The position numbers were made by a program, and so were the translations under genes. Positions 33,540 through 50,062 of a DNA stretch of 64,000 nucleotides are shown piece by piece. The number at the start of each line of letters is the position of its first letter. The stretch's first letter is position 1. The notes under the pieces were generated by a model. That model saw only the letters and a program-made list of their open reading frames with translations, was not told the origin of the DNA and did no database searches. The stretch lies in the IMG/VR virus record IMGVR_UViG_3300008267_000013, positions 23,793-87,792 of that record, one strand, 5' to 3'. The stretch is from a virus.

Positions 33540-34745
33540 TTTAAAAAACGAATAGGTAGAAGAAGTAGGAGGACGGGGGGGTCACAAAACCAAAGAAGGT
33601 ACTATTTATATATAGAAAACAAAGATAGGTTCCATGCTGAGAAGACGCACGGTGATCACCACAAAAGAAAAGGTGATCCACAGCCAAGCGGACGCATGGA
33701 CTGTGTCCATCTTCAAAGTGCAAACGAACCAGTTGATGGACGCCGGAAGCAGGATCTGAACCCTGAACCGGCTAAAAAGAGAATGAAAAACCCCACAGTC
33801 CACAGGGCGTGGAACCCCTGATAGTTTTCAAGAGGCGGCAATCACCAGGGACAAAAGATTGCTGACCACTTGGTTGGACAGATCAACTGGGGGTTTTGTT
33901 ATTAAACTAAAAGCTGGTTAGGCCCATGGTGCTGATGATGGAGCCGCAAACTAACAAACAAAAAAAGATCCAGCCACCAGTAGAGGTAGGAGGACCAGTC
34001 CCAGTCATAGAAGTAGAAGATCCTGGAGAGAGGTGAGGTATAGCACTACAAGTAGAGTAGGATAAGCACTAGTGCCAGTAGAGGTAGGAGTATACCAGGA
34101 GGGGAGGGAGTAGAGGGGAAACAAATAGATCCCATACCCACCCATCCATAAGGTAGAGGGAGTAGGGGGAGGGGTATGACTAGGTAAAGTTCTATAGCAA
34201 ACCCAGTATAATAAAAAGTGGACGAGATGGACCGGCGAAGCGGTCCTGCTCTCCCAGTTGAGGAAGAGGAAAGAATCAGATGCTAGTAAATAAGCATACT
34301 GCCCTTATACAATAGGTTGTGGTAATTGAAAAAAAGGTATACAATTGCTTATTATAAGTTATTATCTACTGGTTAAATGTGGCAATTGGTGTCAAAGCGG
34401 GGCAAGAAGTGGCATCGAGTGCCAACACAGCTTTAGCCCTTATTTTATAGGGTTTTCGAACAAGCCCATCCGGAAACCCCTTATTTTAAGCTAGATTGTG
34501 ATAAATTTTATTTTTATAACATGGATCCCCTATAGATTAAGACATAATAGAATAGCCCCTTCACCATTAAGCCTAAAATAAGGCAAAACGTGATTTCACA
34601 AAATGCCTTAAAATAAGGCACTTCCGAATATTAGACGTATATGTTGAATATATGATAAATATATATTATATGCGGCACCCCTACTCTAATAAATTTAGTA
34701 TACCACCGATGTTGGCAGGTGTCCAGTAGCGTCTATTCAATAGAT
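33540..34745. other. Long non-coding region with short repeats (candidate origin or genome-end signal)
   Basis: No credible ORF; five GTAGAG-led purine repeats; CCTTATTTTA twice and its complement twice; lies at a strand convergence. Confidence 0.45.
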
Positions 34746-34893
34746 ATGGAAAAAGGGTAAAGGGTGGGGGCTAGCCGGGTCAGTAGTCCTTTTTTTTGTT
34801 AGATAGGGCAGGAAGAAAAAAGGATATAGCAGGGGCCTAGCCCCCTCCGCTCCCCCCTTTATTAACAGGGGAGGGAAGGCTTGACTCGCGGTG

Positions 34894-35955
34894 CTACTCC
34901 TTCTTCTTGACACCCGCCAGCATGGAGGTGATGAACGGCTTGACACCCTCCTGCTTGTGGAACTTGAGAACAAACGGAAGCAGTCCCTTGCTGCTGTTCA
35001 TGTTGGTGTAGAACTTCATAGCTGCCTCAGAGGGCAGGGAGAGGAAGTACTTGCGGAGGTTTTCCATATGGTCAGCCTCCATACTGTCACCCAGCTTGCC
35101 GCTGTCGATGATCTTGTCAACCATCGCAACGTGATCGTTCAGCTTCCAGCCCTTCGTCTTTGCCTTGCCCTCCAGAATATCCTCAACCGTCACCTGAGAC
35201 TCATACTTATCGGCAAAGTCTCGGAAAGAAACAGCCGCCTCGAAACCAACGAAACCCGTGGAGATATTGAAAACAGTTGAAAGGTTACGCTTGAAATCAC
35301 CCTCCATCAGCTTGCCAGCCTCAATTGTGCGGCTCAATCGCTCCCAGCTACGACGGGAGGGATAAACCTTGCCCGGTTCAAACTCCTTTGTATGCTCAAG
35401 GTGCGCCTTATTGTGTCGGATAAAATCAACAAGGATGGGGTTGCAGCGATCCTTTGCATAATCAATCCAATCCTCAACAGACGGCTCAACATCAAAAACA
35501 GTCCAGCGGTCCAGTTCGGCAGGGTCCATATCGTTGACCTGATACTGAGCAGCGTGGATTCCACCGTTGACAGCAGCAAACAGCAGGGTATCGGGATGCA
35601 GCCTGTGACCATTAAGCTGTCGGCTGTCCGCAAGCTGGAAGAAGCCCTGCCGCACCTCAGTTGTCGCACGGTCAATCTCGTCCATGAACAGGACAACAGC
35701 CTCGCTGCACGCACGCTTGTACCAATCGGGGGGATTCCAAGCGGTCGAATCGCCGTCAATAACAGGCAAGCCAACAAGATCGCCCTCGCTCATCTGCGAG
35801 GCTCGACGTTCCACTACCGGCAAACCCTTCTTCTCGGCAAACTGGTACACCAGTTCACTCTTGCCGACACCGTGACGACCCCGGATCATAACAGGGTAAC
35901 GGCTATCAGCGATCATGTGGACAAAAGAATTAAACGTCTTGAAATCAACAGCCAT
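34894..35955 (-). CDS. MoxR-like AAA+ ATPase
   Basis: Walker A GRHGVGKS, Walker B LFMDEIDR, DLVGLP, MDPAELDRW, PSRRSW. Confidence 0.9.
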   Translation of the reverse strand: MAVDFKTFNSFVHMIADSRYPVMIRGRHGVGKSELVYQFAEKKGLPVVERRASQMSEGDLVGLPVIDGDSTAWNPPDWYKRACSEAVVLFMDEIDRATTEVRQGFFQLADSRQLNGHRLHPDTLLFAAVNGGIHAAQYQVNDMDPAELDRWTVFDVEPSVEDWIDYAKDRCNPILVDFIRHNKAHLEHTKEFEPGKVYPSRRSWERLSRTIEAGKLMEGDFKRNLSTVFNISTGFVGFEAAVSFRDFADKYESQVTVEDILEGKAKTKGWKLNDHVAMVDKIIDSGKLGDSMEADHMENLRKYFLSLPSEAAMKFYTNMNSSKGLLPFVLKFHKQEGVKPFITSMLAGVKKKE

Positions 35956-36174
35956 TGTCGGACCTCGTTGACGGCTCCATGCCGTCCATGTGGGAGAAGT
36001 TACAACGTGCAGATGGGGTTGTCAAGCAGTTGGTGGGTGGTGCATCAGCCGCGAACAGGTACACAATATTGCATGGGGGGGTTGGTGTCAAGTTGAGCGA
36101 TCATATAAAAAGGGATGGGCTGCGGGGCTAGCCCCCCTTCAAGCACCTTTTATCGGTGCCATCGGGGGTACACT

Positions 36175-37347
36175 TTAACCCTTCTTGCTATTCTTCACTT
36201 CAACAACAATCTCGTTTGTCTGGAAGTATGGACTCTCCTTACCGGCACGGTCAGTCATCCACATACGTCGGACACGGCAAGGAACAGGCGCAGGAGCCTG
36301 CATATCGGTTAAAACAATAAGCCCATCAATTTCGGGGTGCTTGTTGACCCACTTGGTTGGTGCATCGAAGTCGGTGCCGCCGCACATAACACGCTCAGTC
36401 CTGTGCTTCTGTCCTTTCTTCCATTCATACACCAGCTTATCGCCTACCTCAGTATCAAAAGGTACAACGGTGAAAGTTACCAGCTTCGACAGACCATTCA
36501 ATTCAGCAAAGAACATGGAAAGCATCTCGTCGCTAACAGAACCGCTCTGGTCAATAGCAATTGCAATATGTGCAGAATGGTTTGTCTTGCGACCGGGATG
36601 GATATATGGGAACCGCTTGTTGATACGCTTGATTGTGTTGGAACGATTCGCCCGCTGTGCGTTGCCAATAAAGTTGCGGAGGATTGCACGCCAATCAACC
36701 GATCCGTTGACGAATTGCAGGATCGCCCGCTTAACGTCCTCGTGCATATTGCCGAATCCACGGCTAGACTTGGAGGCTTCCTCGACGCCCTTCTTCATAG
36801 CCTCACGCAGACGCTCCCGTGCAATAGCCTTGCTGTCACCGTTCGCCTCGTTCTCTCCCCATCCATCGTGATCGTCAAAGGAATCCTGACCATCACCAAA
36901 GTTGGGATCATTCTCTGCCTTCTCCTCCAACAGCTTCATATATTGTTCAGCCGAGAGGTAATCATCGAAACCAAACTTGGACGGGAAAACACCAAACTCT
37001 GGAATCTCGTCCTTGATATGGCAGTTGATCGACATATCAGTTGCCATGTTCCACATACGGCTCACTTGCTTGCCATCAGGGTTGCGGCTCAATACGTGTT
37101 CAAAGATCAAGTGGTAGAACTCATGCTTGAGAACACCCGTTCGCTGCTTGTCGGGCAATCCATCAAAGAACGCTTGGTTGTATGCCATATCAAAGAAGCC
37201 GTCATCGGTGATACGAACACCAGCAGTAGGAATATTATTGTTAGGGTGCTTGTTGACAGACCGGCTCATAGCAGCAAAGAATGGCTCCTCACGCAGAAGC
37301 CGGAAAACATCATGCTCAAGGTTGTAGTCGCTCAAGGTTGTCTCCAT
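36175..37347 (-). CDS. DUF2201-type metallopeptidase plus VWA-like domain
   Basis: HEFYH, WNMATDMSIN, MIDAS DQSGS, GGTDF, VLTD. Confidence 0.88.
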   Translation of the reverse strand: METTLSDYNLEHDVFRLLREEPFFAAMSRSVNKHPNNNIPTAGVRITDDGFFDMAYNQAFFDGLPDKQRTGVLKHEFYHLIFEHVLSRNPDGKQVSRMWNMATDMSINCHIKDEIPEFGVFPSKFGFDDYLSAEQYMKLLEEKAENDPNFGDGQDSFDDHDGWGENEANGDSKAIARERLREAMKKGVEEASKSSRGFGNMHEDVKRAILQFVNGSVDWRAILRNFIGNAQRANRSNTIKRINKRFPYIHPGRKTNHSAHIAIAIDQSGSVSDEMLSMFFAELNGLSKLVTFTVVPFDTEVGDKLVYEWKKGQKHRTERVMCGGTDFDAPTKWVNKHPEIDGLIVLTDMQAPAPVPCRVRRMWMTDRAGKESPYFQTNEIVVEVKNSKKG

Positions 37348-37478
37348 GCCGCTCTGTGCGGCGTCCAGTCAATCTATGGCAAGCATCGGCACTTGTCAAG
37401 CTGGGCTGGTGGAAAAAAGATGGGTCAGAGGGGGCTGGTCCCCCTTCACCACCGTTTATTGGTGGCTCGGGGCGGCAG

Positions 37479-38108
37479 CTAGGCGATGGGCTTCCAACCG
37501 TAGACCTTTTTGTCGAGCCGATCATGGCCTTGGAAGTCTCGGAGAACTCTACCCATATCGGGCTGTCCATCGTTTGAGGGTGATAACAGCTTTGGGGGGT
37601 GGTCCCAACTATAGAGCGGACGGCTGTAGTCCTTTAGAGTGGGATGGAGCAGGCTGCGATCAAGGGTTGTGATGCAGATTGGTGCGGTGATGTTACGGCT
37701 CATATCATGGAGCGGCATAACGTTGATGTTGATATGAGCAACGTGTTGGTAGCGGATCAAATCATCACAACCATTGGGAGTTTCGGGATAGTACCCACTA
37801 GCAGACTTTAAGATGGTACGAACAGTTTTCTTGTACTTTACATTACGGTACTCAAGGTAGTTACCAAAATAGCCGTGTACGCACTCATTGGGATCAGAGA
37901 TGATGCAGTTAACATAATCGCCAGCATGATAATCATATGCTTCAATGATGGCACCTGATCCATATCCGCTGGCAATCAGGAGCTGCACTTGACGCAACCG
38001 CTCGCCTCCAACATGACGCCTAACAGCTTCAATCTGTGACAGGCGAACTCGGCAGACAGACTGGTTGTGATTGTACTCGCGGCAGTATCCACATTGACGA
38101 TCACCCAT
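37479..38108 (-). CDS. Hypothetical protein with N-terminal zinc knuckle
   Basis: CGYC...HNQSVC; GGAGG RBS. Confidence 0.7.
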   Translation of the reverse strand: MGDRQCGYCREYNHNQSVCRVRLSQIEAVRRHVGGERLRQVQLLIASGYGSGAIIEAYDYHAGDYVNCIISDPNECVHGYFGNYLEYRNVKYKKTVRTILKSASGYYPETPNGCDDLIRYQHVAHININVMPLHDMSRNITAPICITTLDRSLLHPTLKDYSRPLYSWDHPPKLLSPSNDGQPDMGRVLRDFQGHDRLDKKVYGWKPIA

Positions 38109-38118
38109 GATTGGCCTC

Positions 38119-38310
38119 CTAAGCAGCTATATAGAACGGATTGTCGGGTAGGTCAAGTCCAAAAGGGCTTGTGTAGGTTGAATACGTCCCATCGTTCAAT
38201 ACATAGATATGTAGCTGGTGGACATCGTTTGGATATACCTTATCCTCATAGATTAACCAGTATGTCCCATCATGCTTTCTACATAGGATATCACCAACTT
38301 GGACCATCAT
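38119..38310 (-). CDS. GD..xA family protein
   Basis: VQVGDIL...YIAA. Confidence 0.65.
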   Translation of the reverse strand: MMVQVGDILCRKHDGTYWLIYEDKVYPNDVHQLHIYVLNDGTYSTYTSPFGLDLPDNPFYIAA

Positions 38311-38642
38311 GCCTTGCCCTTGTGGTTAGCTACACCAGAAAAGGTTGCCACAGTTTCGAACTTGATACCAGTTTCCTTGGCACGATATGCCAATTGACAG
38401 TTCTTACCTGTATTCAGGCCGCTATTAGCCGCCCAATAACGGAGGTAGTCTTTTCTATCATCCTGTGATTGGAACCGCAAGATCTGGACTTGGGCCTGCT
38501 TACCCTCTCCAGAAGAGATACCAGCATAACGAACAGTAGACTCCTCAGAACAAATTTCACAATGGGTGGAGAGGCCACCAGCACGACGCTTGGCAGGCGA
38601 ACGATGATCAAACTGTTCGCCGCACACTTGACAGGTTCTCAT
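38307..38642 (-). CDS. Hypothetical Zn-finger protein
   Basis: CQVC...CEIC; ATGA overlaps. Confidence 0.65.
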   Translation of the reverse strand: MRTCQVCGEQFDHRSPAKRRAGGLSTHCEICSEESTVRYAGISSGEGKQAQVQILRFQSQDDRKDYLRYWAANSGLNTGKNCQLAYRAKETGIKFETVATFSGVANHKGKA

Positions 38643-38830
38643 GCTAACTTCCTCCACTTAATTCTTTCAAACTGATTATCCAAGTCCATGAACCAATCCC
38701 CAACCTCACCATCTTCAAGTTTCAAGCACAGATGGTAATCGAGATCATCGATATAGTCAAGCACAAGCAGGGTGGCAGTTCCATACTGGGGATAACTATA
38801 TTCCCAGATGTCACCAATGTTGACAGTCAT
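38639..38830 (-). CDS. GD..xA family protein
   Basis: VNIGDIW...WRKLA. Confidence 0.7.
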   Translation of the reverse strand: MTVNIGDIWEYSYPQYGTATLLVLDYIDDLDYHLCLKLEDGEVGDWFMDLDNQFERIKWRKLA

Positions 38831-39015
38831 GCCAGCACCTTAAACTCTGCCATGCCAAACTGGTATCTAACGTTTCTACCATTAGTCAGCGAGATAGTAT
38901 CGTAAATATATCCATCTACATCCTTATCAAGCCTGACAATAAGAAAAATATTATCGTCTCTATCCCAATCGTACTGGACAATATCCCCGACATGGCACAG
39001 CGGTTCGTTGCTCAT
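38827..39015 (-). CDS. GD..xA family protein
   Basis: HVGDIV...KVLA. Confidence 0.7.
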   Translation of the reverse strand: MSNEPLCHVGDIVQYDWDRDDNIFLIVRLDKDVDGYIYDTISLTNGRNVRYQFGMAEFKVLA

Positions 39016-39115
39016 GAGAGAAACCTACAGCGGGGCAGTTGGGTTGTCAAGCGGCAGAAAACGATAAAAGGGTAGGAGAGGGGGACTAGCCCCTCTCGTA
39101 GCGGGTATTTCTAGA

Positions 39116-39190
39116 TGGTGCTTTCGGGAAGAGTTGCACTTCCATCACGAACTTTACAAGAGTTGTATTTTGCTATTAAACTACGAAAGC
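39116..39190 (-). tRNA. tRNA-Thr(UGU)
   Basis: Cloverleaf GCTTTCG/CGAAAGC+ACCA; loop CTTGTAA; atypical T-loop TGCAACT. Confidence 0.8.
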
Positions 39191-39262
39191 TAGGAGTAAT
39201 AAGCACTAATTACATTATATAGTATACCACAAATAGAATAGTATTTAAATGTTTTTTGTTGT

Positions 39263-39334
39263 TGGAGGCCCGTGAGCGAGTTGAACGCTCTTAGCAGATT
39301 TAGAAGATCCGCCGCTGAATCCGTCAGACGGGCC
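39263..39334 (-). tRNA. tRNA-Arg(UCU)
   Basis: GGCCCGT/ACGGGCC+TCCA; loop CTTCTAA; TTCAACT T-loop; short D-arm. Confidence 0.85.
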
Positions 39335-39339
39335 ATAAA

Positions 39340-39855
39340 CTATCTTTTCTTGCTCAGACGTTCTTTTTTCTTTTTTTCATTATTGGCAGATTTGCATAAT
39401 TCACACCTACATTTTCTATATTGATAGGTATTAGGTGTTCCGTGAACCCAAGTAGAGGGATCACTTGTTGTACCACCTCTGGTGGTTACTTGTTTTGTCT
39501 GTCCGTATTTTCCGGCACACTCTCTAGAACAGAATGGACCAGCTTTGCCCTTCTTAATGTTTCCTCTTACATCACGCGCTTCTCTTATAAATTCTTTTTC
39601 ACAAAGTGGACAAATATGTTTACTAAGTTCAGCAATAGGAGCGTGCATCCTACTATGTTCTTCTCTTGATAGTATCTCTAGGTTCTCTATCCTATTATCT
39701 AGTTTGTTTTCATTTAGATGATGCACAACTTCATCAGTAGTCAGTCTCCTACCAATATGTTGTTCCATAATCCAACGATGTTCTAGATAATATCTAGATT
39801 TACCATCTATCTTAACGCAAATATACTTGTAACCTTCTTTAGAAACGTGTGGCAT
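39340..39855 (-). CDS. HNH homing endonuclease
   Basis: EHRWIMEQHIGR...VVHHLNENKLDNRIENL plus C-terminal Zn motifs; AT-rich. Confidence 0.9.
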   Translation of the reverse strand: MPHVSKEGYKYICVKIDGKSRYYLEHRWIMEQHIGRRLTTDEVVHHLNENKLDNRIENLEILSREEHSRMHAPIAELSKHICPLCEKEFIREARDVRGNIKKGKAGPFCSRECAGKYGQTKQVTTRGGTTSDPSTWVHGTPNTYQYRKCRCELCKSANNEKKKKERLSKKR

Positions 39856-39924
39856 AATTACCTCCTATTAGCCCCTCTACCATAATTAGTTAGTTGTGGC
39901 GGAAAAGGCTAACAGGAGGTGTCA

Positions 39925-40221
39925 TGGTCCCAGCTGAGCGAGTCGAACGCTCAATCCCGTAAGGGCGGTTGATTTTCTTACCACTTCAGCTTTCGCTGCC
40001 ATCTTTCGATGTTTGTGGTCTGGACTATGCCTTCACCTTTTAATCTTTCGATCAGTCAGGTGGGTGCCGTCTAGTCTCTACACGTTCTAGATATTTCTAT
40101 CTAGCTTCGCTCGGCGTTGCCAGTTAAGGGTTCACCGAATTTGACACCATTCAGATAGAGGATTTCGCCTCTACTGCTCAATTAAATAAGTCAACTGTGT
40201 ATGCCATTCCACCAAGCTGGG
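39925..40221 (-). tRNA. tRNA-Leu(UAA) with group I intron
   Basis: Exons join as GTTGA-CTT|AAAA-TCAAC; long variable arm; ACCA end. Confidence 0.92.
39977..40187 (-). ncRNA. Group I intron (compact, IC3-like) in tRNA-Leu
   Basis: AAATTCGGTGAA, GTAGAGACTAGACGG, GGCATAGTCCA core; terminal G; P1 CTT/GAG. Confidence 0.9.
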
Positions 40222-40257
40222 TTAATCTTAGTTACTAATTTTCAAAGAAGTACTCAG

Positions 40258-40549
40258 TACGACCCCTGGGAATTGAACCCAGACTCTCTCGATTATCCTG
40301 CCACTATGGCTTTCGCCACCCTTTCGGTTTGTGGTCTGGACTATGCCTTCATCTTCGCCATTACGCGGTCAGACGGGTGATTATAGTCTCTGCACGTCCT
40401 GCTTTCGCAGTTTCGCTCAATGTTGGGACGGATAACTAATTGCAAGTATATCCAGACCGTTCGTTGAATTTACACCATTCAGTATAATATTTCTACTATA
40501 CTGCTCATATTTCTAAGTCGAGTGCTTTCACCAATTAAGCTAGGGTCGT
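40258..40549 (-). tRNA. tRNA-Ile(UAU) with group I intron; no encoded CCA
   Basis: Exons join as CTCGA-CTT|ATAA-TCGAG; acceptor ACGACCC/GGGTCGT. Confidence 0.82.
40297..40514 (-). ncRNA. Group I intron in tRNA-Ile
   Basis: GCAGAGACTATAA, GAAGGCATAGTCCAGACCACAAAC core; P1 CTT/GAG; P10 ATA/TAT. Confidence 0.9.
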
Positions 40550-40685
40550 ACTCAGTACTTCTCTTTCAACCTTACAAGAGGCAGTCTATCACACCTCCGT
40601 CACACTTTCAAGTTCTTTCTCAAACTTTCTTTTGATTCCCTGCCGGGGCAGAACTTCAACCACCAGCAGGGATCAACTTCAACCT

Positions 40686-40716
40686 ATCTTAGTGGCTATC
40701 GGGCGGGTTGTCAAGT
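40686..40716 (-). promoter_or_regulatory. Sigma70 promoter; direct repeat of 41484-41514
   Basis: TTGACA-ACCCGCCCGATAGCCAC-TAAGAT; points toward the tRNA cluster. Confidence 0.8.
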
Positions 40717-40847
40717 GATCGGACACAACGAACCCGGTTCGTATTGCTCACGCCGTCGTTGCGCGGGTTGCCGTAGCCGAAGTCCAAGCCCCTGCCATGC
40801 TCCACATCGGCCAGCCGCTCGATCTCGTCCAGTTGCTCGGGGGTCAT
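40689..40847 (-). CDS. Small ORF ending in a DGR variable-repeat-like Lcl tail
   Basis: MTPEQLDEIERL...DFGYGNPRNDGVSNTNRVRCVR. Confidence 0.6.
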   Translation of the reverse strand: MTPEQLDEIERLADVEHGRGLDFGYGNPRNDGVSNTNRVRCVRSLDNPPDSH

Positions 40848-41044
40848 TTCCACTCCGTAAGACCACGAATGGCGAAGAGCTTGTCGCACGCCGCCTTCCA
40901 GTCCATCTCTTTCCGCTCCAGCAGGAACTCAAGCCTCACGATCTCGGCGTTCGCTTGCCGCAGGGCTTTGATGAGCTTCATCGGGATACCGTTCGGGTCC
41001 GACGATGCCAGAAGCTCGTACTCGTTCAGTTGCTGTGGGGTCAT
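40844..41044 (-). CDS. Hypothetical protein
   Basis: MTPQQLNEYELL; GGAGG RBS; ATGA overlap. Confidence 0.65.
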   Translation of the reverse strand: MTPQQLNEYELLASSDPNGIPMKLIKALRQANAEIVRLEFLLERKEMDWKAACDKLFAIRGLTEWK

Positions 41045-41463
41045 GACTCACCTCCAACAGAACGGACACAACGGACCCGGCGCGTAATGCCCACGACGCT
41101 GCTGTACGTGTTGCCGTGGTTGAAGTACACGCTCCACGCGAGCGCTGTAAGGCCGGACACGGGAGACGACGACCAGAACCATTCACTGGGGCAGTCAGGA
41201 AACACGCTGCACGCTGGATTGTGTGTCTCGTAGTCCACAAGAGACAGAAGCTCCCTGACCGTGGGCAGCCGCCACCCATCACCCAGAGAAGCGGCATATG
41301 CCTTGGCCCCTTCCCAAGTGAACTCCCTATCCGGCACGTCCGCCTGCCACTCAAGATCACCCACCTTCACGGTGCGGATAGATGGTCTACTCTGTGCAAC
41401 CTCCATATCAGCAAGACGTTTTTCGAGCATGGCAACACGGGCAGATAAATCTTTAACAGTCAT
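41041..41463 (-). CDS. DUF1566/Lcl C-terminal domain protein (C-type-lectin-like DGR-target fold)
   Basis: WEGAKAYA, GWRLPTVRELLSL, FWSSS, AWSVYF..G, VRCVR. Confidence 0.9.
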   Translation of the reverse strand: MTVKDLSARVAMLEKRLADMEVAQSRPSIRTVKVGDLEWQADVPDREFTWEGAKAYAASLGDGWRLPTVRELLSLVDYETHNPACSVFPDCPSEWFWSSSPVSGLTALAWSVYFNHGNTYSSVVGITRRVRCVRSVGGES

Positions 41464-41483
41464 ATGCGCCTCCCTATCCACCC

Positions 41484-41514
41484 AATCTAGTCACTATCAG
41501 GCGGGTTGTCAAGT
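41484..41514 (-). promoter_or_regulatory. Sigma70 promoter; direct repeat of 40686-40716
   Basis: TTGACA-ACCCGCCTGATAGTGAC-TAGATT. Confidence 0.8.
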
Positions 41515-41768
41515 AGTTCTTCAGTTTCCTCGTCATAGAAACCGATGTTGCCGCCGGTCACATCGTTCAAGCCCTCTACGAATCCAGCAACGAAGTCCTC
41601 ACTGTAACCGTTCCTGCGGTACTCGTCAAGAAACAGATTCATCTTTTCAATGATGTGCTTGCGAGCAAAAGCCTGCCCAGCCTCATTGCCATGCAGGTTA
41701 TCCTCAACCATCTGCTCACTATACTCGGTCATCTCGCTGCTGTCAATCTCAGTCACGATGTTATCCAT
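41487..41768 (-). CDS. Acidic hypothetical protein
   Basis: MDNIVTEIDS...; GGAGG RBS. Confidence 0.65.
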   Translation of the reverse strand: MDNIVTEIDSSEMTEYSEQMVEDNLHGNEAGQAFARKHIIEKMNLFLDEYRRNGYSEDFVAGFVEGLNDVTGGNIGFYDEETEELLDNPPDSD

Positions 41769-42062
41769 CACTAGCCTCCGTTGGAAAGTGGCATCCCATA
41801 TGCCAACACTCGCACTCACGTTCATGTTCCCACAGGCACCGTCGAGCCTGTTCAAAAGGTACAGGATCAATCGACACCATATGTGGATGCTCAGATGAAA
41901 TTACATCTCTACACTTGTCACAGAGCATTGGTTGGTGAGGATCACGCAGCATCTGGTCGCTACGGATCCGGCATCTACGGCAAGCCGGCAGCAACCCTTT
42001 CAAGTTTGTCACGGCAACCTGCACCGTTGATTCCCTAATCTTAGCCACTCTTCACCTTCCTG

Positions 42063-42275
42063 TCAAGCGTGCAACTCGTATGTGTAGTTTTTATCCATCG
42101 TGTTGAGATAACTTGTGCTGTACTCGTCTCGATCCATGTCATAGATAGAGTAGTACGGCTTACCGTTGATATCAAGAGTAACACCAGTAACAAGAAAATA
42201 TCTTGTTTCCACATGGTGTTGCTCGGAACCATAGACCCATGTGTTCTTCACAATGTCACCGATCTCGTATGTCAT
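42063..42275 (-). CDS. GD..xA family protein
   Basis: YEIGDIV...ELHA. Confidence 0.65.
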   Translation of the reverse strand: MTYEIGDIVKNTWVYGSEQHHVETRYFLVTGVTLDINGKPYYSIYDMDRDEYSTSYLNTMDKNYTYELHA

Positions 42276-42394
42276 AGATGTACTTTAAAGCTGCCACCCA
42301 CCGTTGTCAAGCAGGATGATCAGATAAAAGGTTGATGTGAGGGGGCCAGCCCCCCTGCACCCAGCTTTTTCTGCTGGGCCGGGGATGGCTAATG

Positions 42395-42440
42395 TTACTC
42401 GCGCTTCTTTAGGCCGTTCTTAAAAGTTGGGCGTTTCCAT
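42395..42440 (-). pseudogene. Displaced 3' remnant of gene 43199-44098
   Basis: Encodes KRPTFKNGLKKRE* versus ERPSYKNGLKKR* in the intact gene. Confidence 0.8.
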
Positions 42441-42471
42441 TTTTTTATACTATTTATTTTAGGAGATAAAA

Positions 42472-43197
42472 ATGACAGAAGAACAAAAAGCTTTAAAAAA
42501 AATAAAAGATAAGGAATATAGAGGTAAAAATAAAGATAAAGCAAAAGCTTGGAGGGAAGCTAATAAAGAGTACATTAAGGAATATAGAAAAAAATATTAT
42601 GAAGAAAATAAAGATGAATTATTAGAATATTATAAAAAACAGAGAGAAGAAAATCCTGGGGAGAATACTGAGCGCTGTAAAGAATATAGAAAAAATAACT
42701 TAGAAAAATTAAGAGGATACGATAGACAAAGAAGGAAGGAAGGGAAGAAAAAAGAATCCGATAAGAAATATCGCGATAAAAATAAAGATAAAGCTAAGGC
42801 ATATAAAAAAGAATATTCTAAAAAAAACAAAGATAAATTAAATGAATACAAAAAAGAATATTTGAAAGATAACCCAATGTATAGGACCCATAATCAATTT
42901 TCAAATGCTATACGAGATCATTTAAAAAAACTTTCAATTAATAAAACACGCAATTGGGAAGAATTAGTTGGTTATACCTTAGAAGATCTTATGAAGCACC
43001 TTGAATCGCTTTTCAAAGAAGGCATGACTTGGGATAACTATGGCAGTTATTGGCACATTGACCACGTTCGTCCCAAGTCATGGTTCATCTTTGAATCAGT
43101 CGAAGATCAAGCGTTCAAAGACTGCTGGGCATTGTCCAATCTTCAACCTTTGGAGGCTAGTCTCAATTGCTCTAAAGGTAACAGATACGAAGGTTAG
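42472..43197 (+). CDS. HNH endonuclease with Lys-rich helical repeats
   Basis: GMTWDNYGSYWHIDHVRP...NLQPLEASLNCSKGN; AT-rich insert in the GC-rich island. Confidence 0.9.
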   Translation: MTEEQKALKKIKDKEYRGKNKDKAKAWREANKEYIKEYRKKYYEENKDELLEYYKKQREENPGENTERCKEYRKNNLEKLRGYDRQRRKEGKKKESDKKYRDKNKDKAKAYKKEYSKKNKDKLNEYKKEYLKDNPMYRTHNQFSNAIRDHLKKLSINKTRNWEELVGYTLEDLMKHLESLFKEGMTWDNYGSYWHIDHVRPKSWFIFESVEDQAFKDCWALSNLQPLEASLNCSKGNRYEG

Positions 43198-43198
43198 T

Positions 43199-44098
43199 TT
43201 ATCTTTTCTTTAGGCCATTTTTATAAGACGGCCTCTCATGCCACTTGATAATCTTTTCAGCAACGTGTTCAGTCCCATCCTTGCCAAACCACAGAACCTC
43301 GATTAGCTTGCTGCCCTTGCCAGCACGCCAGCGACGTGTTTCTGCTGTTACCTTCATAACGGTGCCGATACGCTCAACCTCCTTGCTGGGAGTAGGAGTT
43401 GCGCCCCGGTGGACAACATCATAGTTGGAAACCCACAGGGGATCATGCCCATCATGCCCAATATAGGGATCACGCAGCTTGACAAGATCACCCGGCTCAT
43501 ACGGAGTGTCACGGTTCACTTCACGATAATGTGCAGCCTCATGGTGAGAAGTTACCGTGTTGAACATAAGGTAGGTTTCTGGACGGTTGCGATAACGCTC
43601 AGTCAGAGCTTCCGCAGCACTCCTTTCCTCCTGAGTTGAACTGTACTGGTTAACCTGCAAGCTGTTACCATAGCGATCATGCAGCCAGTATGAACTGTTG
43701 AAGAACTGCTTGTAGAAATCCTGCAAGTCCTCACGCTCGTCATACTCCTTGAGGAACTGTTCGTTTACTTCATCAAAAGCAGGGCTGGAGAAATAAGCGT
43801 ACTCAACACAACGCTCAAAGTTCCAGTTGGTCTTGACAACAGATCGGAAGTTTTCCTCGTTCACTTCCCAACGGTTGAATCGCTCGTCATAATATTCCTT
43901 TACCGTGTAAGGAGTCCCATCCTCATGGACTCCATAATAATGATTATGCTTCTGTGAACCGCGAACGACACACATATCCTTGATATTCTGTAGAGTGTAG
44001 CCCCGCGCAGGGTCCAGCATGATGCTGGCAATATTCTGTCGCTTGAGAGGGAACTTGGTGTTGGGAACAAACTTAACAATCTTCTTCTGACGCGCCAT
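43199..44098 (-). CDS. Hypothetical protein with C-terminal SH3-like domain
   Basis: 299 aa; YEPGDLV...IEVLWFG. Confidence 0.75.
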   Translation of the reverse strand: MARQKKIVKFVPNTKFPLKRQNIASIMLDPARGYTLQNIKDMCVVRGSQKHNHYYGVHEDGTPYTVKEYYDERFNRWEVNEENFRSVVKTNWNFERCVEYAYFSSPAFDEVNEQFLKEYDEREDLQDFYKQFFNSSYWLHDRYGNSLQVNQYSSTQEERSAAEALTERYRNRPETYLMFNTVTSHHEAAHYREVNRDTPYEPGDLVKLRDPYIGHDGHDPLWVSNYDVVHRGATPTPSKEVERIGTVMKVTAETRRWRAGKGSKLIEVLWFGKDGTEHVAEKIIKWHERPSYKNGLKKR

Positions 44099-44134
44099 GT
44101 GTCACCTCACCCGTCCATCGGGGATATTGACAAT

Positions 44135-44425
44135 CTATAACGGGATGCTGCTGCTGTCAAGCGCCTGCTTGCAATCTTCGCAACAATCTTTCGACAACTC
44201 TTTCCACGGTACCTTTGGCAGATTAAGGATTGCTTTTCTAACCTGCTCCCGCACACCATAATGAAAACAGTTTATTATATTGTAAGAGGTAAAGTTTCCA
44301 ACTCCTCTGGGGGTTACATTATGTGTGATTGTACATACCAGTTCAAAATCAGACAGTGCGATTAGCTCGCTCGCCAGTTTCTTCAAGCCTTCCTCGTCTA
44401 GCTTGTTTGACGGTATCCGCATCAC
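44135..44425 (-). CDS. Hypothetical protein
   Basis: AGGAGG RBS; promoter at 44465-44470. Confidence 0.6.
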   Translation of the reverse strand: MMRIPSNKLDEEGLKKLASELIALSDFELVCTITHNVTPRGVGNFTSYNIINCFHYGVREQVRKAILNLPKVPWKELSKDCCEDCKQALDSSSIPL

Positions 44426-44790
44426 GTCCTCCTGTCCACTCTATATAGAGCAGGCTGCTTCGCCTGTCAAGCTGGCGGGGCATAAGAAAAGGGAGTAGAG
44501 GGAGGGCTAGCCCCCTCAGCCAACCTTTAATTCCCAGCCGGGGAGGTTGACTAGAAGGAGGGGGCGGGGTACATTAAGAACATCAGGAGGACGGAACAAA
44601 TGGACTGGGACAACTTAGACGAGGAGATGGAGTGGGAGGGGGAGGACTGGTGTTGGGATGATGATATGCCGACTCCCGTTCACAATGCTTGGTGGTACGA
44701 CTTGACTGCTGAAGGTTAGTGTACTAGATTAACTTTTACGGGGCAATTGAGCCTCACACAAGCTGGCTAATCCAGCATCGGAGCAAGACA

Positions 44791-45108
44791 ATGGCTGCTA
44801 CCCGCGAGAACGTTCTGGCTGCTATCGTGAAGTACGTTGAGGATCATGGTCGCCGCGCCCCTGCCAAGGCTATCGCTGAGGCTGTTGGTGACAAGCTGCC
44901 GGTTGTGCAGGGCATCATCAAGGAGCTGGTCGCTGCTGGTTCTATTGAGTCGAGCCGTGGACGCAACGGCGGTGCAAAGCCCTCTGGTCAGAACATTGAC
45001 AAGGTTGAGGTTGAGACTGCTGCGTCCGACGAGGACATGGCCGCACAGTTTGCGGCACTTGTCAACCAGCTTGAGCAGGATGCAGAGGCCCAGGCCGCTG
45101 TTGGTTAG
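44791..45108 (+). CDS. Winged-HTH protein
   Basis: AKAIAEAVG...VQGIIKELVAAGSIESSRGRNGG; hairpin downstream. Confidence 0.8.
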   Translation: MAATRENVLAAIVKYVEDHGRRAPAKAIAEAVGDKLPVVQGIIKELVAAGSIESSRGRNGGAKPSGQNIDKVEVETAASDEDMAAQFAALVNQLEQDAEAQAAVG

Positions 45109-45340
45109 TTAACAATAGCAAAGGGTACAGGGGCCGCTCTCCATGTCGGGGGGCGGCCTCGTTGCATAGGTGCCTAAGATAGCACCCCCACCGCAGTAGA
45201 CAAGGGTGAATAAACTTTTTTTAGCAGGTAAAAAAGAGGGGTCGAAGAGGGCTAGCCCCTCCCGATTCCCGTTTTTTTCTGTAGACTCCCGGCGGGCTCT
45301 CGACTACTTTGACAATGTACCCACCACGGAGGAACACAAT

Positions 45341-45997
45341 ATGGCAAAGCTCCCTTGGATTCTCGGCAATGCGAAGTTGCAAAAGACTAGCGGCAATGGG
45401 TTCGGACGTGTTATTGGGTACGGGATCCCCCCAGACTTCGACTTCGAGGTTGACGGGAGTAACTTTAACACGTGTCCTGGTGCTCTTGCCTGTCGTGCCG
45501 TCTGCTATGCAAAGCAAGGCGCATATAACTGGCCGGCAACCAAGGCGGCGCGTCAACGTGCTCTTGAATCCACCCTCAGTCAATCGTTCGTTGACGATGC
45601 GGTCGCGGACCTTAAGCGGATGCGCGGCGTTGGTGTTGTACGTATCCACGACAGCGGTGATTTCTATTCGCAGACGTATCTGGACAAGTGGGTTGCAATT
45701 GCCCGTGCGTTCCCCAATATTATCTTTTACGCCTACACCAAGAGTGTCACGCTTGACTTCACAGGCATTCCCGAAAACTTCCGCGTCACCTTTTCGCTGG
45801 GTGGTAAGTATGATTCACAGGTTGACCTGAGCAAGCCGCACTCCCGTATCTTCACAACGCATGAGGATATGGAGCGGGCGGGATATGTAGACGGCGGCAA
45901 AAGCGATGCCCCGGCGATTCAAGGGCTGGTCAAGATCGGCCTCCCTTGGCACGGTGTTAAGAATCTAACAGACTCTCAAAAGAAGTTTTTCCGATAG
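45341..45997 (+). CDS. GP88-like phage protein (Cys motif, radical-SAM-like)
   Basis: GNAKL, TCPGALACRAVCYA, RIHDSGDFYS, FYAYTKS. Confidence 0.8.
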   Translation: MAKLPWILGNAKLQKTSGNGFGRVIGYGIPPDFDFEVDGSNFNTCPGALACRAVCYAKQGAYNWPATKAARQRALESTLSQSFVDDAVADLKRMRGVGVVRIHDSGDFYSQTYLDKWVAIARAFPNIIFYAYTKSVTLDFTGIPENFRVTFSLGGKYDSQVDLSKPHSRIFTTHEDMERAGYVDGGKSDAPAIQGLVKIGLPWHGVKNLTDSQKKFFR

Positions 45998-46338
45998 TGT
46001 AAAGCCCCACGGTGTCCAAAAAAAGGATGCCGAAGGGGGCTGGCCCCCTACCCCACCACTTTTCTGATGGCAGGGAGGGAGACCAGTCTTTTTTAGATAA
46101 GGAAACGCACGTTGCCCCTATTCTACCGCCCTAGAGTCAACGTGGAGACGCGATCGTCATCTTTGCGACACGGTATCGCCTAATAACCTTGCCGCCCTTC
46201 CTGAGGGGATTAACGTTGTTTAATTCCTGACAGCATGAGCGGGCATTCTTTCGCATGGTGAAGATAGCATCCTCGATCCGGCGCCAATTATTGCCAACAC
46301 GCTTTAGAACGGTATAGATATGATTCTTCTTTGTTGTC

Positions 46339-46566
46339 TTAATCGTCATCATCCATCTCCTCATCTGGCATGTCGTCAAGCTCTTGAGCGGCACGGTTAG
46401 CTAGAAACCCCATCTGTTTAACTTCATCGTCAGAGAAGTCATCTAGTTCAATATCTAAACCATATTCATCCTTGATCTCCAGGATTGATACCCGCCCGGT
46501 ATGTGAGACCTCGGCCAGAATATCATATTGACCAAAGTCATCCCGGAAGTTATAGTTGACGCGCAT
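46339..46566 (-). CDS. Small acidic protein
   Basis: D/E-rich, GAGG RBS. Confidence 0.65.
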   Translation of the reverse strand: MRVNYNFRDDFGQYDILAEVSHTGRVSILEIKDEYGLDIELDDFSDDEVKQMGFLANRAAQELDDMPDEEMDDDD

Positions 46567-46567
46567 T

Positions 46568-46744
46568 CTAGATCCCCTCCTCTACAACGATGTATGAAAC
46601 ACCTGTAGACTTGAGGCGACTGTTTAATACCTCCGCTCGATCAATAGCGGCCTGCTTATCCTTGAAACGTAGCGGCTGGCCATCGAATTGGACAACATGT
46701 CCGCCACTTGCGTAGATTGCTTTTATAACCCAATTTGTTTGCAT
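46568..46744 (-). CDS. Small protein, paralogue of 25904-26119 (not in ORF track)
   Basis: MQTNWVIK...DGQPLRFKDKQAAIDRAEVLN; AGGAG RBS. Confidence 0.6.
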   Translation of the reverse strand: MQTNWVIKAIYASGGHVVQFDGQPLRFKDKQAAIDRAEVLNSRLKSTGVSYIVVEEGI

Positions 46745-47170
46745 TTATTCTCCTGTGCCTTGAGGCACGTTATCATCAGTCTCGATCTTGGACTTGTTAC
46801 GGCGAATCCTCTTCCTCTTCAATTCGCGGTCATATTCAATAGAAAGGCAGCTCATCTTCTCAGGAACAGGAACCTCCCGTGCCTTAGCCTTGCGTGAGCC
46901 GCAGTTATCACACTTCGCACAGTCAAGGTGGTTGATACCACGGCAGCTACTATTAACGCACCGCCATGCGAAACCAGCCCGCACAAGAATACCACCAAGA
47001 ACAGCATACTCGTCTGCATCGTAGTTGTCAAGGTCAACAGCAGCAATCAGTCGATCAACAAAACCTTCGGTGAATTGCGTCTTGAGACGAACAGCAAAGT
47101 TATTCTTTCCACCCTTCTCGATCTCAGTCTGTGCGTCAACACTCTCGATATTATCCATGGCAACCTCCAA
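46745..47170 (-). CDS. Hypothetical protein with RanBP2-like Zn ribbon
   Basis: WRC...CRGINHLDCAKCDNCG. Confidence 0.65.
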   Translation of the reverse strand: MEVAMDNIESVDAQTEIEKGGKNNFAVRLKTQFTEGFVDRLIAAVDLDNYDADEYAVLGGILVRAGFAWRCVNSSCRGINHLDCAKCDNCGSRKAKAREVPVPEKMSCLSIEYDRELKRKRIRRNKSKIETDDNVPQGTGE

Positions 47171-47905
47171 AGTTAGTTAGCGTGACGGTAGTTAGCAGCA
47201 TCCCACTCAACAGGCAAGCTAATCTCATAATGCACATATTGTTGCCAATCAGCATAACCAAGCGACTGTGCGAGGCGGTCACGCTCCTCAACACTCATCA
47301 TGTCGTCGGTGCGACCAACAATCTTCTTGACCTTGTTGTAAACCATGTCAAACATAACAACCCCCAAGGTGAGCCAAGCCATGATCATATAAGTCGGCAT
47401 CTGTGTCCTCCCGTTCAACTGAAGCTATATTCTCATGAGACGGGGATGGTTGCAACAAAGAAAAAGATGTAAGCGGAGGGGCTAGCCCTCCCCGGTCCCG
47501 GTTTATATTCAGCCGGGTGGGAGGCAATCCTACAAGAAGAACTTGACAACGAATGCAGTTGCAACGCCACCAGTCAAGGCACCAAGGAGGAGCGAATAAC
47601 GCACAAGATTAACAACCTGCTCATCGTTGAAGGAATAGGAGATGGAGTTAACAGACGACAGACGCTTTGAGACGCGCATGAGAAGCCTCCAGGGAGTTGG
47701 TGAGTCTTTGTAGATCATGGCAACCGCCGGAACATATCATACCATTGCTGGACAAGCAACGCATAAGTTTCTGTGATGGAACCGCTACTCTTCTTCTTCG
47801 TTGGCTTCTTCCCGCCAGTCCTCTTCCTCTTGGCGATTGTACTCTTTTTTTGATCGGTGTGGTCCACTTTTTGTTACCCCTTGGATGATGCGAACCATGT
47901 GAATG

Positions 47906-48151
47906 TCACGCGTTCTTATTCGTGAACTTCCAGCCATCAGGCGCCGTTTCATTCCACACCTCGCGTGCATACTCGGGGTCGATCACATCAAGGTCGGCAA
48001 AAAGATCAGAAACAACTTTATAGCTATCACGACCCTTGGTCCACACGCCATGATCGTCGCTGTAATCATACCACCAATCATGACGGCTCATCACGTTGCG
48101 GAGCTGGGTGGCAACAGTTTCACGGTCCTTGAGGATGGGGAGATTGTTCAT
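47906..48151 (-). CDS. Hypothetical phage protein
   Basis: HDWWYDYSDD motif; AGGAG RBS. Confidence 0.7.
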   Translation of the reverse strand: MNNLPILKDRETVATQLRNVMSRHDWWYDYSDDHGVWTKGRDSYKVVSDLFADLDVIDPEYAREVWNETAPDGWKFTNKNA

Positions 48152-49328
48152 CTGTGTTCTCCTAGCAGCACCGTGCTGCCTATGAACTGATATTACGTCA
48201 GGACGGGTCAGCGTACAAGATAAAAAAACGGTGATGAAAAGGGGCTAGTCCCCCTTGCCAACCCTTTTATGGGCTGGTGGGGGCATCCCATATGTTGCGG
48301 CTGGGTGGTACCGCCGGGGCCTAATACACCCCTTCCAGTTCTGCACTTGTATCATACCATGCGGCCAGAGGGCAAGCCTCATCCTGCCAGTCGGTCATCT
48401 CCTCATAAGCCTCACGGCTGTCAACCTTCTGACACTCATGGAGGGCCATGAGTTCAACAGGCGGCGGAGCGATGTAACCAACAACACCCTCACGCTCCAG
48501 AGCCTCCTCGCGCTCGACAAGCTCTTCGGCTTCACGGTCAGTCATGGGGGGAACCTCGTCAGAGAAAAGGTGCTGGTGGGCTTCGGTCAAGGTCATGGTG
48601 TCTCCAAGATTGCGACAGCGGCGCAGGGCTTCAATGAAGTTGGTGTCGTGGTGACGCATCTTTTGTCTCCAGAGTTGATCTAGTCTAGTGTCCTGCAATC
48701 TAGTTGTCAAGCCGGTACATGGCGGCAACAATGATGAGGGCAACTACAAGGGAAGAGAAAAAGATGTTCATGATGCGGTCGTTGTTCATGTTTGACTCCG
48801 TGTCGTGCGCTGTTGATGAAGTGATATTCTCATGGAACCGGCAGGGTGACAAGATAAAAAAAGGGTGCAGGATAGGGGCTGGCCCCCTCTGCCAATCCTT
48901 TTTGGACTGGCTGGGGTCTTAGCCTATCGGGGTTCGGAGTCCTTCACCAGCTGTTCAAACTGGTCATACACCCGCTGCCGGTTGCCGTTCAGTTTGTAGA
49001 CACGTTTAACGTGGGCATACATGGAACCCCCTCTGTGCTTCAATCCAGCAAGCTCTAGCTTCAGAGCCGAAAGCTGGGTCCGCATATGATACCAGTTGAT
49101 CGATTGCAGGCCCGTGATCAATGACATAGCTTCTCCTTCTCGTCCCCATAATCACCAGAGCAGCAGGGGCCGCAGATTGCAACCTCCTGTCCATTGATCG
49201 CCCCAACAACACCATGCAGGGAGGGATCGAAGTAGACCCCGCAGCAGTTGCACCTCTTGTCCATTAGAGCGACCTCCCGGGGTTGGTGGCAACAGCCACG
49301 ATGGCAATGATGATAAACGTCATTGAGA

Positions 49329-49574
49329 TCAAAGGTCACACTCCTTCCAGCTCATGCCATTCATCGCCATGAGCTGACGCAGCCCACCCTGCTGGCAGCT
49401 CGTTGTCACACTATAACGTCCGCTGTTCAATGTCAAGACACCATCCTTCCTACAGAGTAGCGGAGTGTTATAAGAAAAAATGATGCTGCCATCAGTCCAG
49501 ATCGAAGTGGACTTGCGGCAAGTCTTGCCTGCGTTCCAAGCATTGAAGGCATCCTGAACATTCTTGCGGGCCAT
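49329..49574 (-). CDS. Hypothetical early protein
   Basis: MARKNVQDAF...IFSYNTPL...YSVTTSCQQ; GGAGG RBS. Confidence 0.65.
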   Translation of the reverse strand: MARKNVQDAFNAWNAGKTCRKSTSIWTDGSIIFSYNTPLLCRKDGVLTLNSGRYSVTTSCQQGGLRQLMAMNGMSWKECDL

Positions 49575-50062
49575 GGCATCCTCCGTTGTGTGCCGTCTTG
49601 ATGTGTCTAATCTCTCATGGGTTGACTGCCTTGGCAAGAAGAATAAACGATTGCTTGTGGGGGCTAGCCTGCCACGATCAACCTTTTTCCTGGGCAGCAT
49701 ATAAACTTTTTTAAAGCTTGACTGGCATGAACACTTTTATTTTTATGTATGGGGTGGTGGGGAGGGGAGGTGGTCATACTGCAAGATGTCACAATATAAG
49801 TCCCTAGAGATATTAAAAAGGGTTAAAAACGGGCATAACCCTCGCACCAACTCCCGGAAAAATTCTCATTTTTGAAACATATAATATTTTAAGAAAACTT
49901 TAACATGTGTTATATTAATCGTCAACAAAAATTTTTTTAAAAAATTTCTAGGATTTCTTCTTGTCTACTGTTTAAATAACTGGTAGTCTATATACAATAT
50001 ATTTTGTTATCTTTATTTAAAAAAATATCTACTTATAGTATACAGGAGAGCAATCAAATATT

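Follow-up and report, generated by a model that had tools for sequence, protein, structure and literature searches.

We describe 13 copies of a symmetric 48-bp dyad that lie in a GC-rich island of an uncultured freshwater virus, within a stretch of 64 000 nucleotides (the window, bases 23793-87792 of the 87.8-kb IMG/VR record IMGVR_UViG_3300008267_000013, G000; CheckV completeness 43%). The island occupies window positions 34.7-49.7 kb and has a GC content of about 50%, in a genome of about 35%. The dyads are probably a symmetric variant of the PeSLs of T4-type phages, that is, composite terminator/promoter joints between cassettes of putative early genes, at which homologous recombination would reshuffle the cassettes. 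Recombination between two dyads would delete, insert or transpose cassettes, as PeSLs do, and because the dyad is its own reverse complement, cassette inversion would also be possible, leaving a promoter/promoter joint at one end of the inverted block and a stop/stop joint at the other.

Searching the window with the core GGGGCTAGCCCC, allowing up to two mismatches, returned 14 matches, as compared with 0.47±0.76 in 100 dinucleotide-preserving shuffles. The 14th (19649) was a stray match in coding sequence, without tracts, while the other 13 were dyads, the same fixed-geometry elements that a first-pass annotation of this DNA had described. Named by the last base of the left half, they are 34772 (spanning 34749-34796, with its centre between 34772 and 34773), 34838 (34815-34862), 36129 (36106-36153), 37436 (37413-37460), 39087 (39064-39111), 42347 (42324-42371), 44508 (44485-44532), 45253 (45230-45277), 46041 (46018-46065), 47483 (47460-47507), 48246 (48223-48270), 48880 (48857-48904) and 49665 (49642-49689). 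Around the consensus core GGGGCT/AGCCCC, in which the slash marks the centre, the 48 bp consist of an A-tract, GG, six unconserved nucleotides, a G-run, CT/AG, a C-run, six unconserved nucleotides, CC and a T-tract; the outermost copy, 34772, has the core GGGGCT/AGCCGG. Outward from the centre, the half profile of the 50-odd family members reads AGCCCC at positions 1-6, C-rich at 7-10, unconserved at 11-16, C(C) at 17-18 and TTTT at 19-22, followed by (A/T)T, in agreement with the poorly conserved flanks that had been reported. The A- and T-runs both start at the 19th base, 18.5 bp from the centre, in nine of the 13 copies (36129, 37436, 39087, 42347, 45253, 47483, 48246, 48880 and 49665), and within 1 bp of that distance in the other four. 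All copies are intergenic, as claimed, since the open reading frames that seemingly overlap 45253 and 49665 truly start beyond the elements, at a ribosome-binding site and ATG.

A scan of the full genome and of related phages, as the first-pass annotation had proposed, found no further copies in the whole 87.8-kb record (13 in 15 kb and none in the other 73 kb), so that the confinement to the island holds, and located the family in the relatives G001 and G002 and in metagenome contigs. The exact pattern (WAAA, 14 nt, GGGCTAGCCC, 14 nt, TTTW) occurred in only two other records among 2.9 million viral contigs; a first, degenerate pattern had returned mostly unrelated single terminators. G001 is collinear with the window at about 72% DNA identity and carries dyads at orthologous places before the contig ends. 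In G002 (162 kb, 89% complete, with an ATPase 59% identical), 17 of the 18 core matches fall within one 16.5-kb island of about 50% GC in a genome of 36% GC, for which L060 coordinates are used here. The metagenome scan added about a dozen further short contigs with one to four copies each. In a sister lineage, L037 (IMGVR_UViG_3300008459_000116, ATPase 64% identical), we counted 10-12 copies of an element of equal arm lengths and different core, laid out as AAAAATGGGGGG, 4 nt, GGGGCC/GGTCCC, 4 nt, CCCCCCATTTT and then a TTGAC promoter, and these occupy an island of about 50% GC (L037:400-9850) that adjoins the ATPase gene. The core is therefore constant within a lineage and replaced as a block in the sister lineage. 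The closest ATPase relatives were 80-97% identical, and no comparable repeat family was found in 25 more distant relatives of the ATPase locus.

Beyond position 24, the dyad halves split into two types, a promoter side (P) and a stop-codon side (S). In the P half, the T-tract at 19-24 nt from the centre is followed by a -35 hexamer (28-31 or 37-38 nt), a TAnnnT-like -10 hexamer after a 17-nt spacer, GGAGG and ATG. The S half abuts a stop codon, beginning no more than about 10 nt past it, and in 33 of 69 S halves the distance from the centre to the end of the upstream stop codon is 41-51 nt. The joint type tracks gene orientation. Most copies lie between tandem genes and are S/P joints, which in the window include 36129 (between the VWA/DUF2201 gene and the AAA ATPase gene, with orthologous copies in G001 and G002), 37436, 42347, 47483, 48246 and 48880. 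Divergent genes are separated by P/P joints, at 44508 in the window, at L060:10706 in G002 and in L081, L085 and L083, the window copy being orthologous to those of G002, L085 and L081. Convergent genes are separated by S/S joints, at 46041 in the window, at L060:14766 in G002 and in L068, L083 and L103. The block from 44508 to 46041 has its genes on the + strand and is flanked by genes on the - strand, which bears out the earlier statement that these cassettes face the opposite way. At the right edge of the island, the left half of 49665 is of P type, and at the left edge, the right half of 34838, after the stop codon of the AAA ATPase gene, is of S type.

Promoter-like sites numbered 50 in the island, as compared with 25±5 in shuffles. 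The predicted sigma70-type promoters of the P halves on the - strand are TTGACA-17-TATTGT at 36063-36091 (-35 offset of 38 nt from the centre of 36129), TTGACA-17-TAGATT at 37371-37399 (37 nt, dyad 37436), TTGACA-17-TAGGTT at 39022-39050 (37 nt, 39087), TTGACA-17-TAAAGT at 42282-42310 (37 nt, 42347) and TTGACA-17-TATATA at 44442-44470 (38 nt, left side of 44508), followed by four with an offset of 28 nt: TTGCAA-17-GAATAT, with an upstream TG, at 47427-47455 (47483), TTGTAC-17-TAATAT at 48190-48218 (48246), TTGTCA-17-GAATAT at 48824-48852 (48880) and TTGCCA-17-GAGATT at 49609-49637 (49665). The right side of 44508 has TTGACT-17-TACATT at 44547-44575 on the + strand (38 nt), which would serve the + strand block. 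Both classes of -35 distance in the first-pass annotation were thus recovered for every copy named there except 45253, a dyad within the + strand block whose right-side promoter is decayed.

The difference of one helical turn between the two offsets, which that annotation had stressed, is real in the window. If the spacer is 17 nt and transcription starts about 7 nt past the -10 box, the T-tract is computed to lie at about -46 to -41 from the start site at an offset of 29 nt, and at about -55 to -49 at 37-38 nt, ranges which we take to be the proximal and distal subsites of UP elements; the coordinates of these subsites are those reportedly given by Estrem et al. in 1999. By position, the tract is the A/T-rich stretch at about -40 to -60 upstream of a sigma70 promoter that is expected of an UP element, and we infer that it acts as one. 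Since it falls on the proximal or the distal subsite, the helical-turn offset would be explained without a new factor. On its promoter side, each cassette would accordingly supply the T-tract at the UP position, then a near-consensus sigma70 promoter, a ribosome site and a start codon.

The same geometry had been read as an operator, and a dimeric host or phage protein on the palindromic core, with the A/T tracts two turns away aiding bending, might control, activate or insulate the early promoters. The core is nearly invariant in the 50-odd copies while the flanks are free, it differs as a block between sister lineages, and its centre would be placed near -64 or -73 relative to the start site. 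Orthologous P/P joints, which are untranscribed from the local promoters, likewise keep the core, and this point favours the operator proposal. Other data do not agree well with it, because S/S joints and other copies have no promoter, the T-tract occupies the UP position, and the distance between core and promoter varies: the -35 offset is 28-31 nt in most copies and 37-38 nt in five left-hand window copies and in G001, and across the family every value from 28 to 32 occurs, plus 37, 38 and 40, so that there is no strict phasing. Moreover, near-consensus promoters should need no activator. A possible binder is encoded in the cassette beside the P/P joint, where 44791-45108 (+) codes for a 105-aa protein of the winged-helix type (Rrf2-like; HrcA_DNA-bdg at 24.2 bits, above the cut-off) with homologues in G002, L037, L038 and L040. 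It is a weak candidate, however, as the window and G002 proteins are only 37% identical over 60 residues in spite of their common core, and L038 and L040 are dyad-free relatives. Taken together, these observations make an operator rather unlikely. The uniformity of the core, including that at P/P joints, is compatible both with homogenisation by recombination and with recognition by a protein.

Several other features were observed around this cassette. A 39-aa acidic, Trp-rich reading frame (44600-44719) precedes the winged-helix gene. Between the stop codon of that gene and dyad 45253 lie about 145 untranslated nucleotides, which include a GC-rich hairpin of their own (45120-45200, GGCCGC/GCGGCC), in contrast to the tight stop-to-dyad spacing at the other dyads. 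A promoter is conserved at the right-hand boundary of the winged-helix cassette (L060:11370-11445, L085:850-925 and L081:1641-1715), from which transcription would run inward and antisense to the 3' end of the gene; the window copy, 45253, lacks this promoter.

On the stop-codon side, a C-run that follows the stop codon by 0-10 nt pairs with the core G-run, so that the resulting S-half hairpin ends exactly at the dyad centre, and it encloses a second hairpin, hairpin B, whose loop is the tract itself. Predicted S-half hairpins range from -19 to -27 kcal/mol. In the window they lie at 34839-34886 (dyad 34838, -27.0 kcal/mol) and, on the - strand, at 36133-36168 (36129, -22.4), 37441-37472 (37436, -19.1), 42348-42390 (42347, -24.8), 46042-46084 (right half of 46041, -26.3), 47487-47524 (47483, -18.8), 48250-48283 (48246, -24.2) and 48881-48916 (48880, -22.8), with one on the + strand at 46003-46041 (left half of 46041, after the GP88-family gene, -23.4). 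The hairpin of 36129, in which the C-run and core G-run enclose a hairpin B with a 5-bp stem and an A-rich loop, shows a compensatory change with respect to G001. When halves from different dyad copies were combined into chimeras, hairpin B of the S halves reached -7.0 kcal/mol, as compared with -9.9 kcal/mol for the native sequences (p = 2e-5), and no such effect was seen in P halves. In agreement with this, RNAalifold analysis of the five orthologous S halves that follow the GP88-family gene returned the C-run:G-run pairing plus hairpin B, with compensatory double changes at four pairs. Hairpin B covaries and is a real structure. Separately, contigs L068 and L103, which are 99.7% identical, differ by a 91-bp deletion (L068:1570 versus L103:366-457) that begins directly after a dyad T-tract, so that hairpin B loses its outer arm and the upstream reading frame its end.

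On this side, the upstream C-run and hairpin B would base-pair with two parts of the terminator hairpin, its outer arm and its G-run, and this pairing may either stabilize the 3' end of the message or make termination leaky or conditional. The latter can be refined into a translation-dependent switch, in which the C-run after the stop codon (segment 1), the core G-run (2) and the core C-run (3) would compete, with 1:2 blocking the terminator 2:3, and in which a ribosome positioned at the stop codon would mask segment 1 and leave segment 2 free to pair with 3, making termination dependent on upstream translation. The conserved S-half fold with its four compensatory pairs, its stability, the restriction of the hairpin B effect to S halves and the attenuator-like spacing of stop codon and C-run all suit such a switch, and in L037, too, an upstream C-run can pair with the outer G6 arm. 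Nevertheless, in many copies the 2:3 stem stops short of the U-tract, the copy linked to a tRNA gene has no hairpin B, and stable 3' hairpins past stop codons are common as plain message stabilizers; we regard the refinement as unlikely.

Read as RNA in either direction, the dyad forms a two-tier hairpin between an A-tract and a U-tract, which is the design of a bidirectional intrinsic terminator: a GC-rich dyad symmetrically bordered by A- and T-tracts, placed after stop codons and at convergent gene ends and able, in principle, to work on both strands. Such a function is favoured by several observations. The elements follow stop codons or, at 39087, directly follow a tRNA gene, lying 29 nt downstream of tRNA-Thr (39116-39190, -); with 8 bp, its perfect stem is the best of the window, and its folding z-score is -2.6, that of 45253 being -2.1. 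A tandem pair of dyads (34772, its outer member, and 34838) closes the convergent left edge of the island in all three genomes (the window, G001 and, in degenerate form, G002), and each following cassette has its own promoter. A hairpin reaching to within 2 nt of the U-tract was predicted in 57% of 28 distinct S/P copies when internal loops were allowed. Finally, the L037 element, with a G6:C6 outer stem that abuts the T-tract and folds of -16 to -27.5 kcal/mol, is clearly, by architecture, an ordinary strong two-tier bidirectional terminator. Termination by the dyads therefore seems likely, as judged from position and architecture.

Several results weigh against this view for the lineage of the window. 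Unlike in an ordinary bidirectional terminator, the stem is broken by an unconserved internal loop of 6×6 nt, whose 6+6 positions pair at chance level, which leaves a poorly paired spacer of about 12 nt between the conserved stem and the U-tract and only GG:CC adjoining the tracts. A strict terminator scan accepted two of the 13 dyads, folding z-scores against dinucleotide shuffles were weak, with a mean near -0.9, and chimeras had hairpins within 2 nt of the U-tract as often as the native S/P copies. Native combinations of left and right flanks folded no better than chimeras (-16.8 versus -18.1 kcal/mol), and on this ground we rejected a long hairpin maintained by compensatory changes. Within the sense RNA, the S-half hairpin competes with the terminator hairpin and is expected to fold earlier, tying up the core G-run. 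The AT-rich part of the same genome uses canonical terminators, each unique in sequence, whereas the dyad sequence is common to all copies, and the core is far more uniform than a hairpin requires, being conserved also at P/P joints that local transcripts do not cross. Because the hairpin is interrupted, the strict scan accepts so few copies, the z-scores are weak and the S-half hairpin would sequester the G-run, terminator activity in this lineage is likely to be weak or conditional.

The two tracts do not reduce to the structures next to them. TTTT at positions 19-22 is kept in both half types, and the single variable tract position tends to complementarity between the two sides of the dyad (34 observed, 27.6 expected, p = 0.04); we accordingly rejected, as the whole story, the idea that the A-tract is solely the loop of hairpin B and the T-tract solely an UP element.

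The poor likeness of the window-lineage hairpins to canonical terminators also leaves room for RNA processing. The two-tier hairpin, about two helical turns long and with an internal loop, resembles the RNase III signals (R1.1 type) between the early cistrons of T7, and cutting by RNase III or a similar enzyme would yield monocistronic messages with protective 3' hairpins; the intercistronic position and the constant size, in both lineages, of the outer stem, the 4-6-nt internal loop and the inner stem would suit this role. The dyads differ from the T7 signals in their A/U tracts, which are not features of RNase III sites, in an upper stem of just 4-6 bp and in the promoter that nearly every cassette has of its own, which makes a polycistronic precursor unneeded, and P/P joints would never be in RNA at all. 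We consider processing sites very improbable.

Comparisons of proteins and DNA among the relatives, in which breakpoints were resolved to 'within the element' at 65-75% identity, support that cassettes were gained, lost, moved and flipped at dyads. The winged-helix and GP88 cassettes are adjacent in the window and in L085, while three cassettes (2.5 kb, L060:11445-13955) separate them in G002 and two in the phage of L081/L103; the L085 joint combines the left flank of one G002 dyad (67% versus a background of 54%) with the right flank of another (65% versus 53%). A 742-bp cassette, X, follows the GP88 S/S joint in L068, L103 and L083 and is absent from G002. The gene to the right of the S/S joint in the window (gene b, 46339-46566, -) has its G002 homologue on the + strand inside an inverted block, and in L083 it is on the + strand after a P/P joint. 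Two cassettes that run Q-R in G002 run R-?-Q in L089 with unchanged orientation. At the junction of the VWA gene and the next gene, the window and G002 have a dyad (37436 in the window) and G001 has only 35 bp of plain spacer, while at the following junction G001 and G002 have a dyad and the window has none. The layout that one inversion between two P/S joints would give, a P/P and an S/S joint with inverted joints between them, is that of window 44508-46041 and of L060:10706-14766 in G002. The synteny breaks that the first-pass annotation had asked for are thus found at the elements, with the element, and not the nucleotide, as the limit of resolution. In a rough count, contig ends were not enriched at dyads (4 of 24, as compared with about 3.6 expected).

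Cassette shuffling and inversion, as foreseen in the recombination option of that annotation, are therefore backed by the relatives, while the dedicated recombination site that it also proposed found no support. In agreement with its remark that no recombinase was seen in the window, neither a tyrosine (PF00589) nor a serine (PF00239) recombinase gave a match in the record (43% complete) or in the 89%-complete G002, although positive controls worked. A RecA/UvsX-like recombinase gene is encoded in the record, and since the specialised enzymes were not found, ordinary homologous recombination would suffice. A specialised enzyme that cuts at the central CT/AG and rejoins cassettes ending in half-sites, in either orientation, would account for the presence of the same half-site at the start and end of every cassette and for the complete core that S/P, P/P and S/S joints all rebuild. 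EndoVII-like (phrog_1035) free-standing endonuclease genes, AT-rich and opposite in strand to their neighbours, occur in three independent places, each 125-190 bp rightward of a dyad: 42472-43197 (+) in the window, a homing endonuclease gene that starts 125 bp rightward of 42347, and L060:5279-5887 and L060:16948-17553 in G002. As short-homology recombination gives the same patterns and is documented for PeSLs (PMC2839356), and as the breakpoints are placed no more finely than the element, we hold a dedicated site to be highly unlikely. A fourth EndoVII-like copy is located outside the island (60389-61306).

A related idea is that the dyad is an orientation-neutral cassette junction and a counterpart of integron sites, at which a putative nuclease or recombinase would cut the central CTAG, so that cassettes would be excised, exchanged between co-infecting phages and re-inserted either way. 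The S half, which folds into a hairpin ending exactly at the junction, would fit such a role, and the EndoVII-like enzymes beside three dyads are possible candidates. As in integrons, imperfect palindromes stand at the 3' ends of cassettes that are joined at a fixed point, but no integrase was found, the cassettes carry promoters, the joints are symmetric and there is no sequence similarity to attC, and we find the idea quite improbable.

The system that the dyads resemble most is that of the PeSLs, composite terminator/promoter motifs described in the T4-type phages RB49/phi1, T4/PST and KVP40/nt-1 (Arbiol et al. 2010, PMC2839356; Comeau et al. 2014, PMC4122927). In a PeSL, a stem-loop immediately precedes an AT-rich stretch, a sigma70-like promoter and a Shine-Dalgarno sequence, and the stem is lineage-specific, being a G-run, loop and C-run in RB49 and A3-4G3-loop-C3T3-4 in nt-1 (PMC2839356, PMC4122927). 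PeSLs cluster in hyperplastic regions, their terminator and promoter activities have been measured, and they recombine to give indels and mini-circles (PMC2839356, PMC4122927); they have been proposed as a device by which T4-type phages swap accessory genes and leave the neighbours undisturbed. Like them, the dyads are short, conserved intergenic modules in many copies, in a gene-dense, variable and presumably early region of small, mostly unknown genes. The P halves show the same succession of a stem-loop upstream of an AT-rich stretch, sigma70-type -35 and -10 hexamers, a Shine-Dalgarno sequence and a start codon, the stem sequence is lineage-specific, and indels and replacements between relatives are bounded by elements. 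At the level of sequence, the dyad family shares every feature that defines a PeSL, and the analogy that the first-pass annotation had offered 'in spirit' is the best match among the readings considered here.

The dyads also differ from PeSLs in several respects. The element is a strict 48-bp dyad with a 12-bp palindromic core that stands 12 nt from each tract, it forms three kinds of joint (S/P, P/P and S/S) and borders inverted cassettes, features that are absent from the PeSL papers (the word 'inversion' occurs zero times in PMC2839356), and its stop-codon side bears an additional hairpin, which covaries and would compete with the terminator hairpin. For PeSLs, terminator and promoter activity and mini-circles have been measured, whereas the dyads are known from sequence. 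The phage background differs as well, since the relative G002 has a Gp23-family capsid and the lineage a DnaE-type polymerase.

This background is as follows. DnaE-type DNA polymerase, GroEL and PhoH genes are among the surroundings of the island, the polymerase (3614-7042) having PHP and DNA_pol3_alpha domains, and the Gp23-family (T4-type) capsid gene of G002 lies at C1:150155-151750 (E 4e-62). A T4-type Gp23-family capsid, a DnaE-type (PHP plus Pol III alpha) polymerase and GroEL are thereby combined in one lineage. A megablast search of the island and one late region against 50 697 phage records gave zero matches at the DNA level, most cassette genes had no family match, and Rfam returned only one tRNA and two group I introns on the island, with no match to the dyads. 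At the left edge, a promoter-like site on the - strand (34697-34725, TGGACA-17-TATACT with TG), 47 nt left of the outermost dyad, faces outward from the island into the strand-switch region, with no reading frame of at least 60 aa downstream. Just beyond the right-boundary dyad, a GGGGTGGTGGGGAGG-like G-rich tract is conserved at 49735-49765 in the window and at L060:18045-18075 in G002.

If the dyads are PeSL-like joints, the family would carry this gene-swapping device over into an uncultured freshwater lineage whose replication module is different, and would add a design feature to it, as a palindromic joint lets short-homology recombination invert cassettes too and every product remains a working joint. 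With one motif, three joint types and two sister cores, the family offers a test bed for why such elements keep one sequence per genome, and its S half is a candidate translation-sensitive terminator. The dyad pattern, the exact form of which matched only this lineage among the viral contigs searched, may also be used as a marker to retrieve the early region of the lineage from metagenomes.

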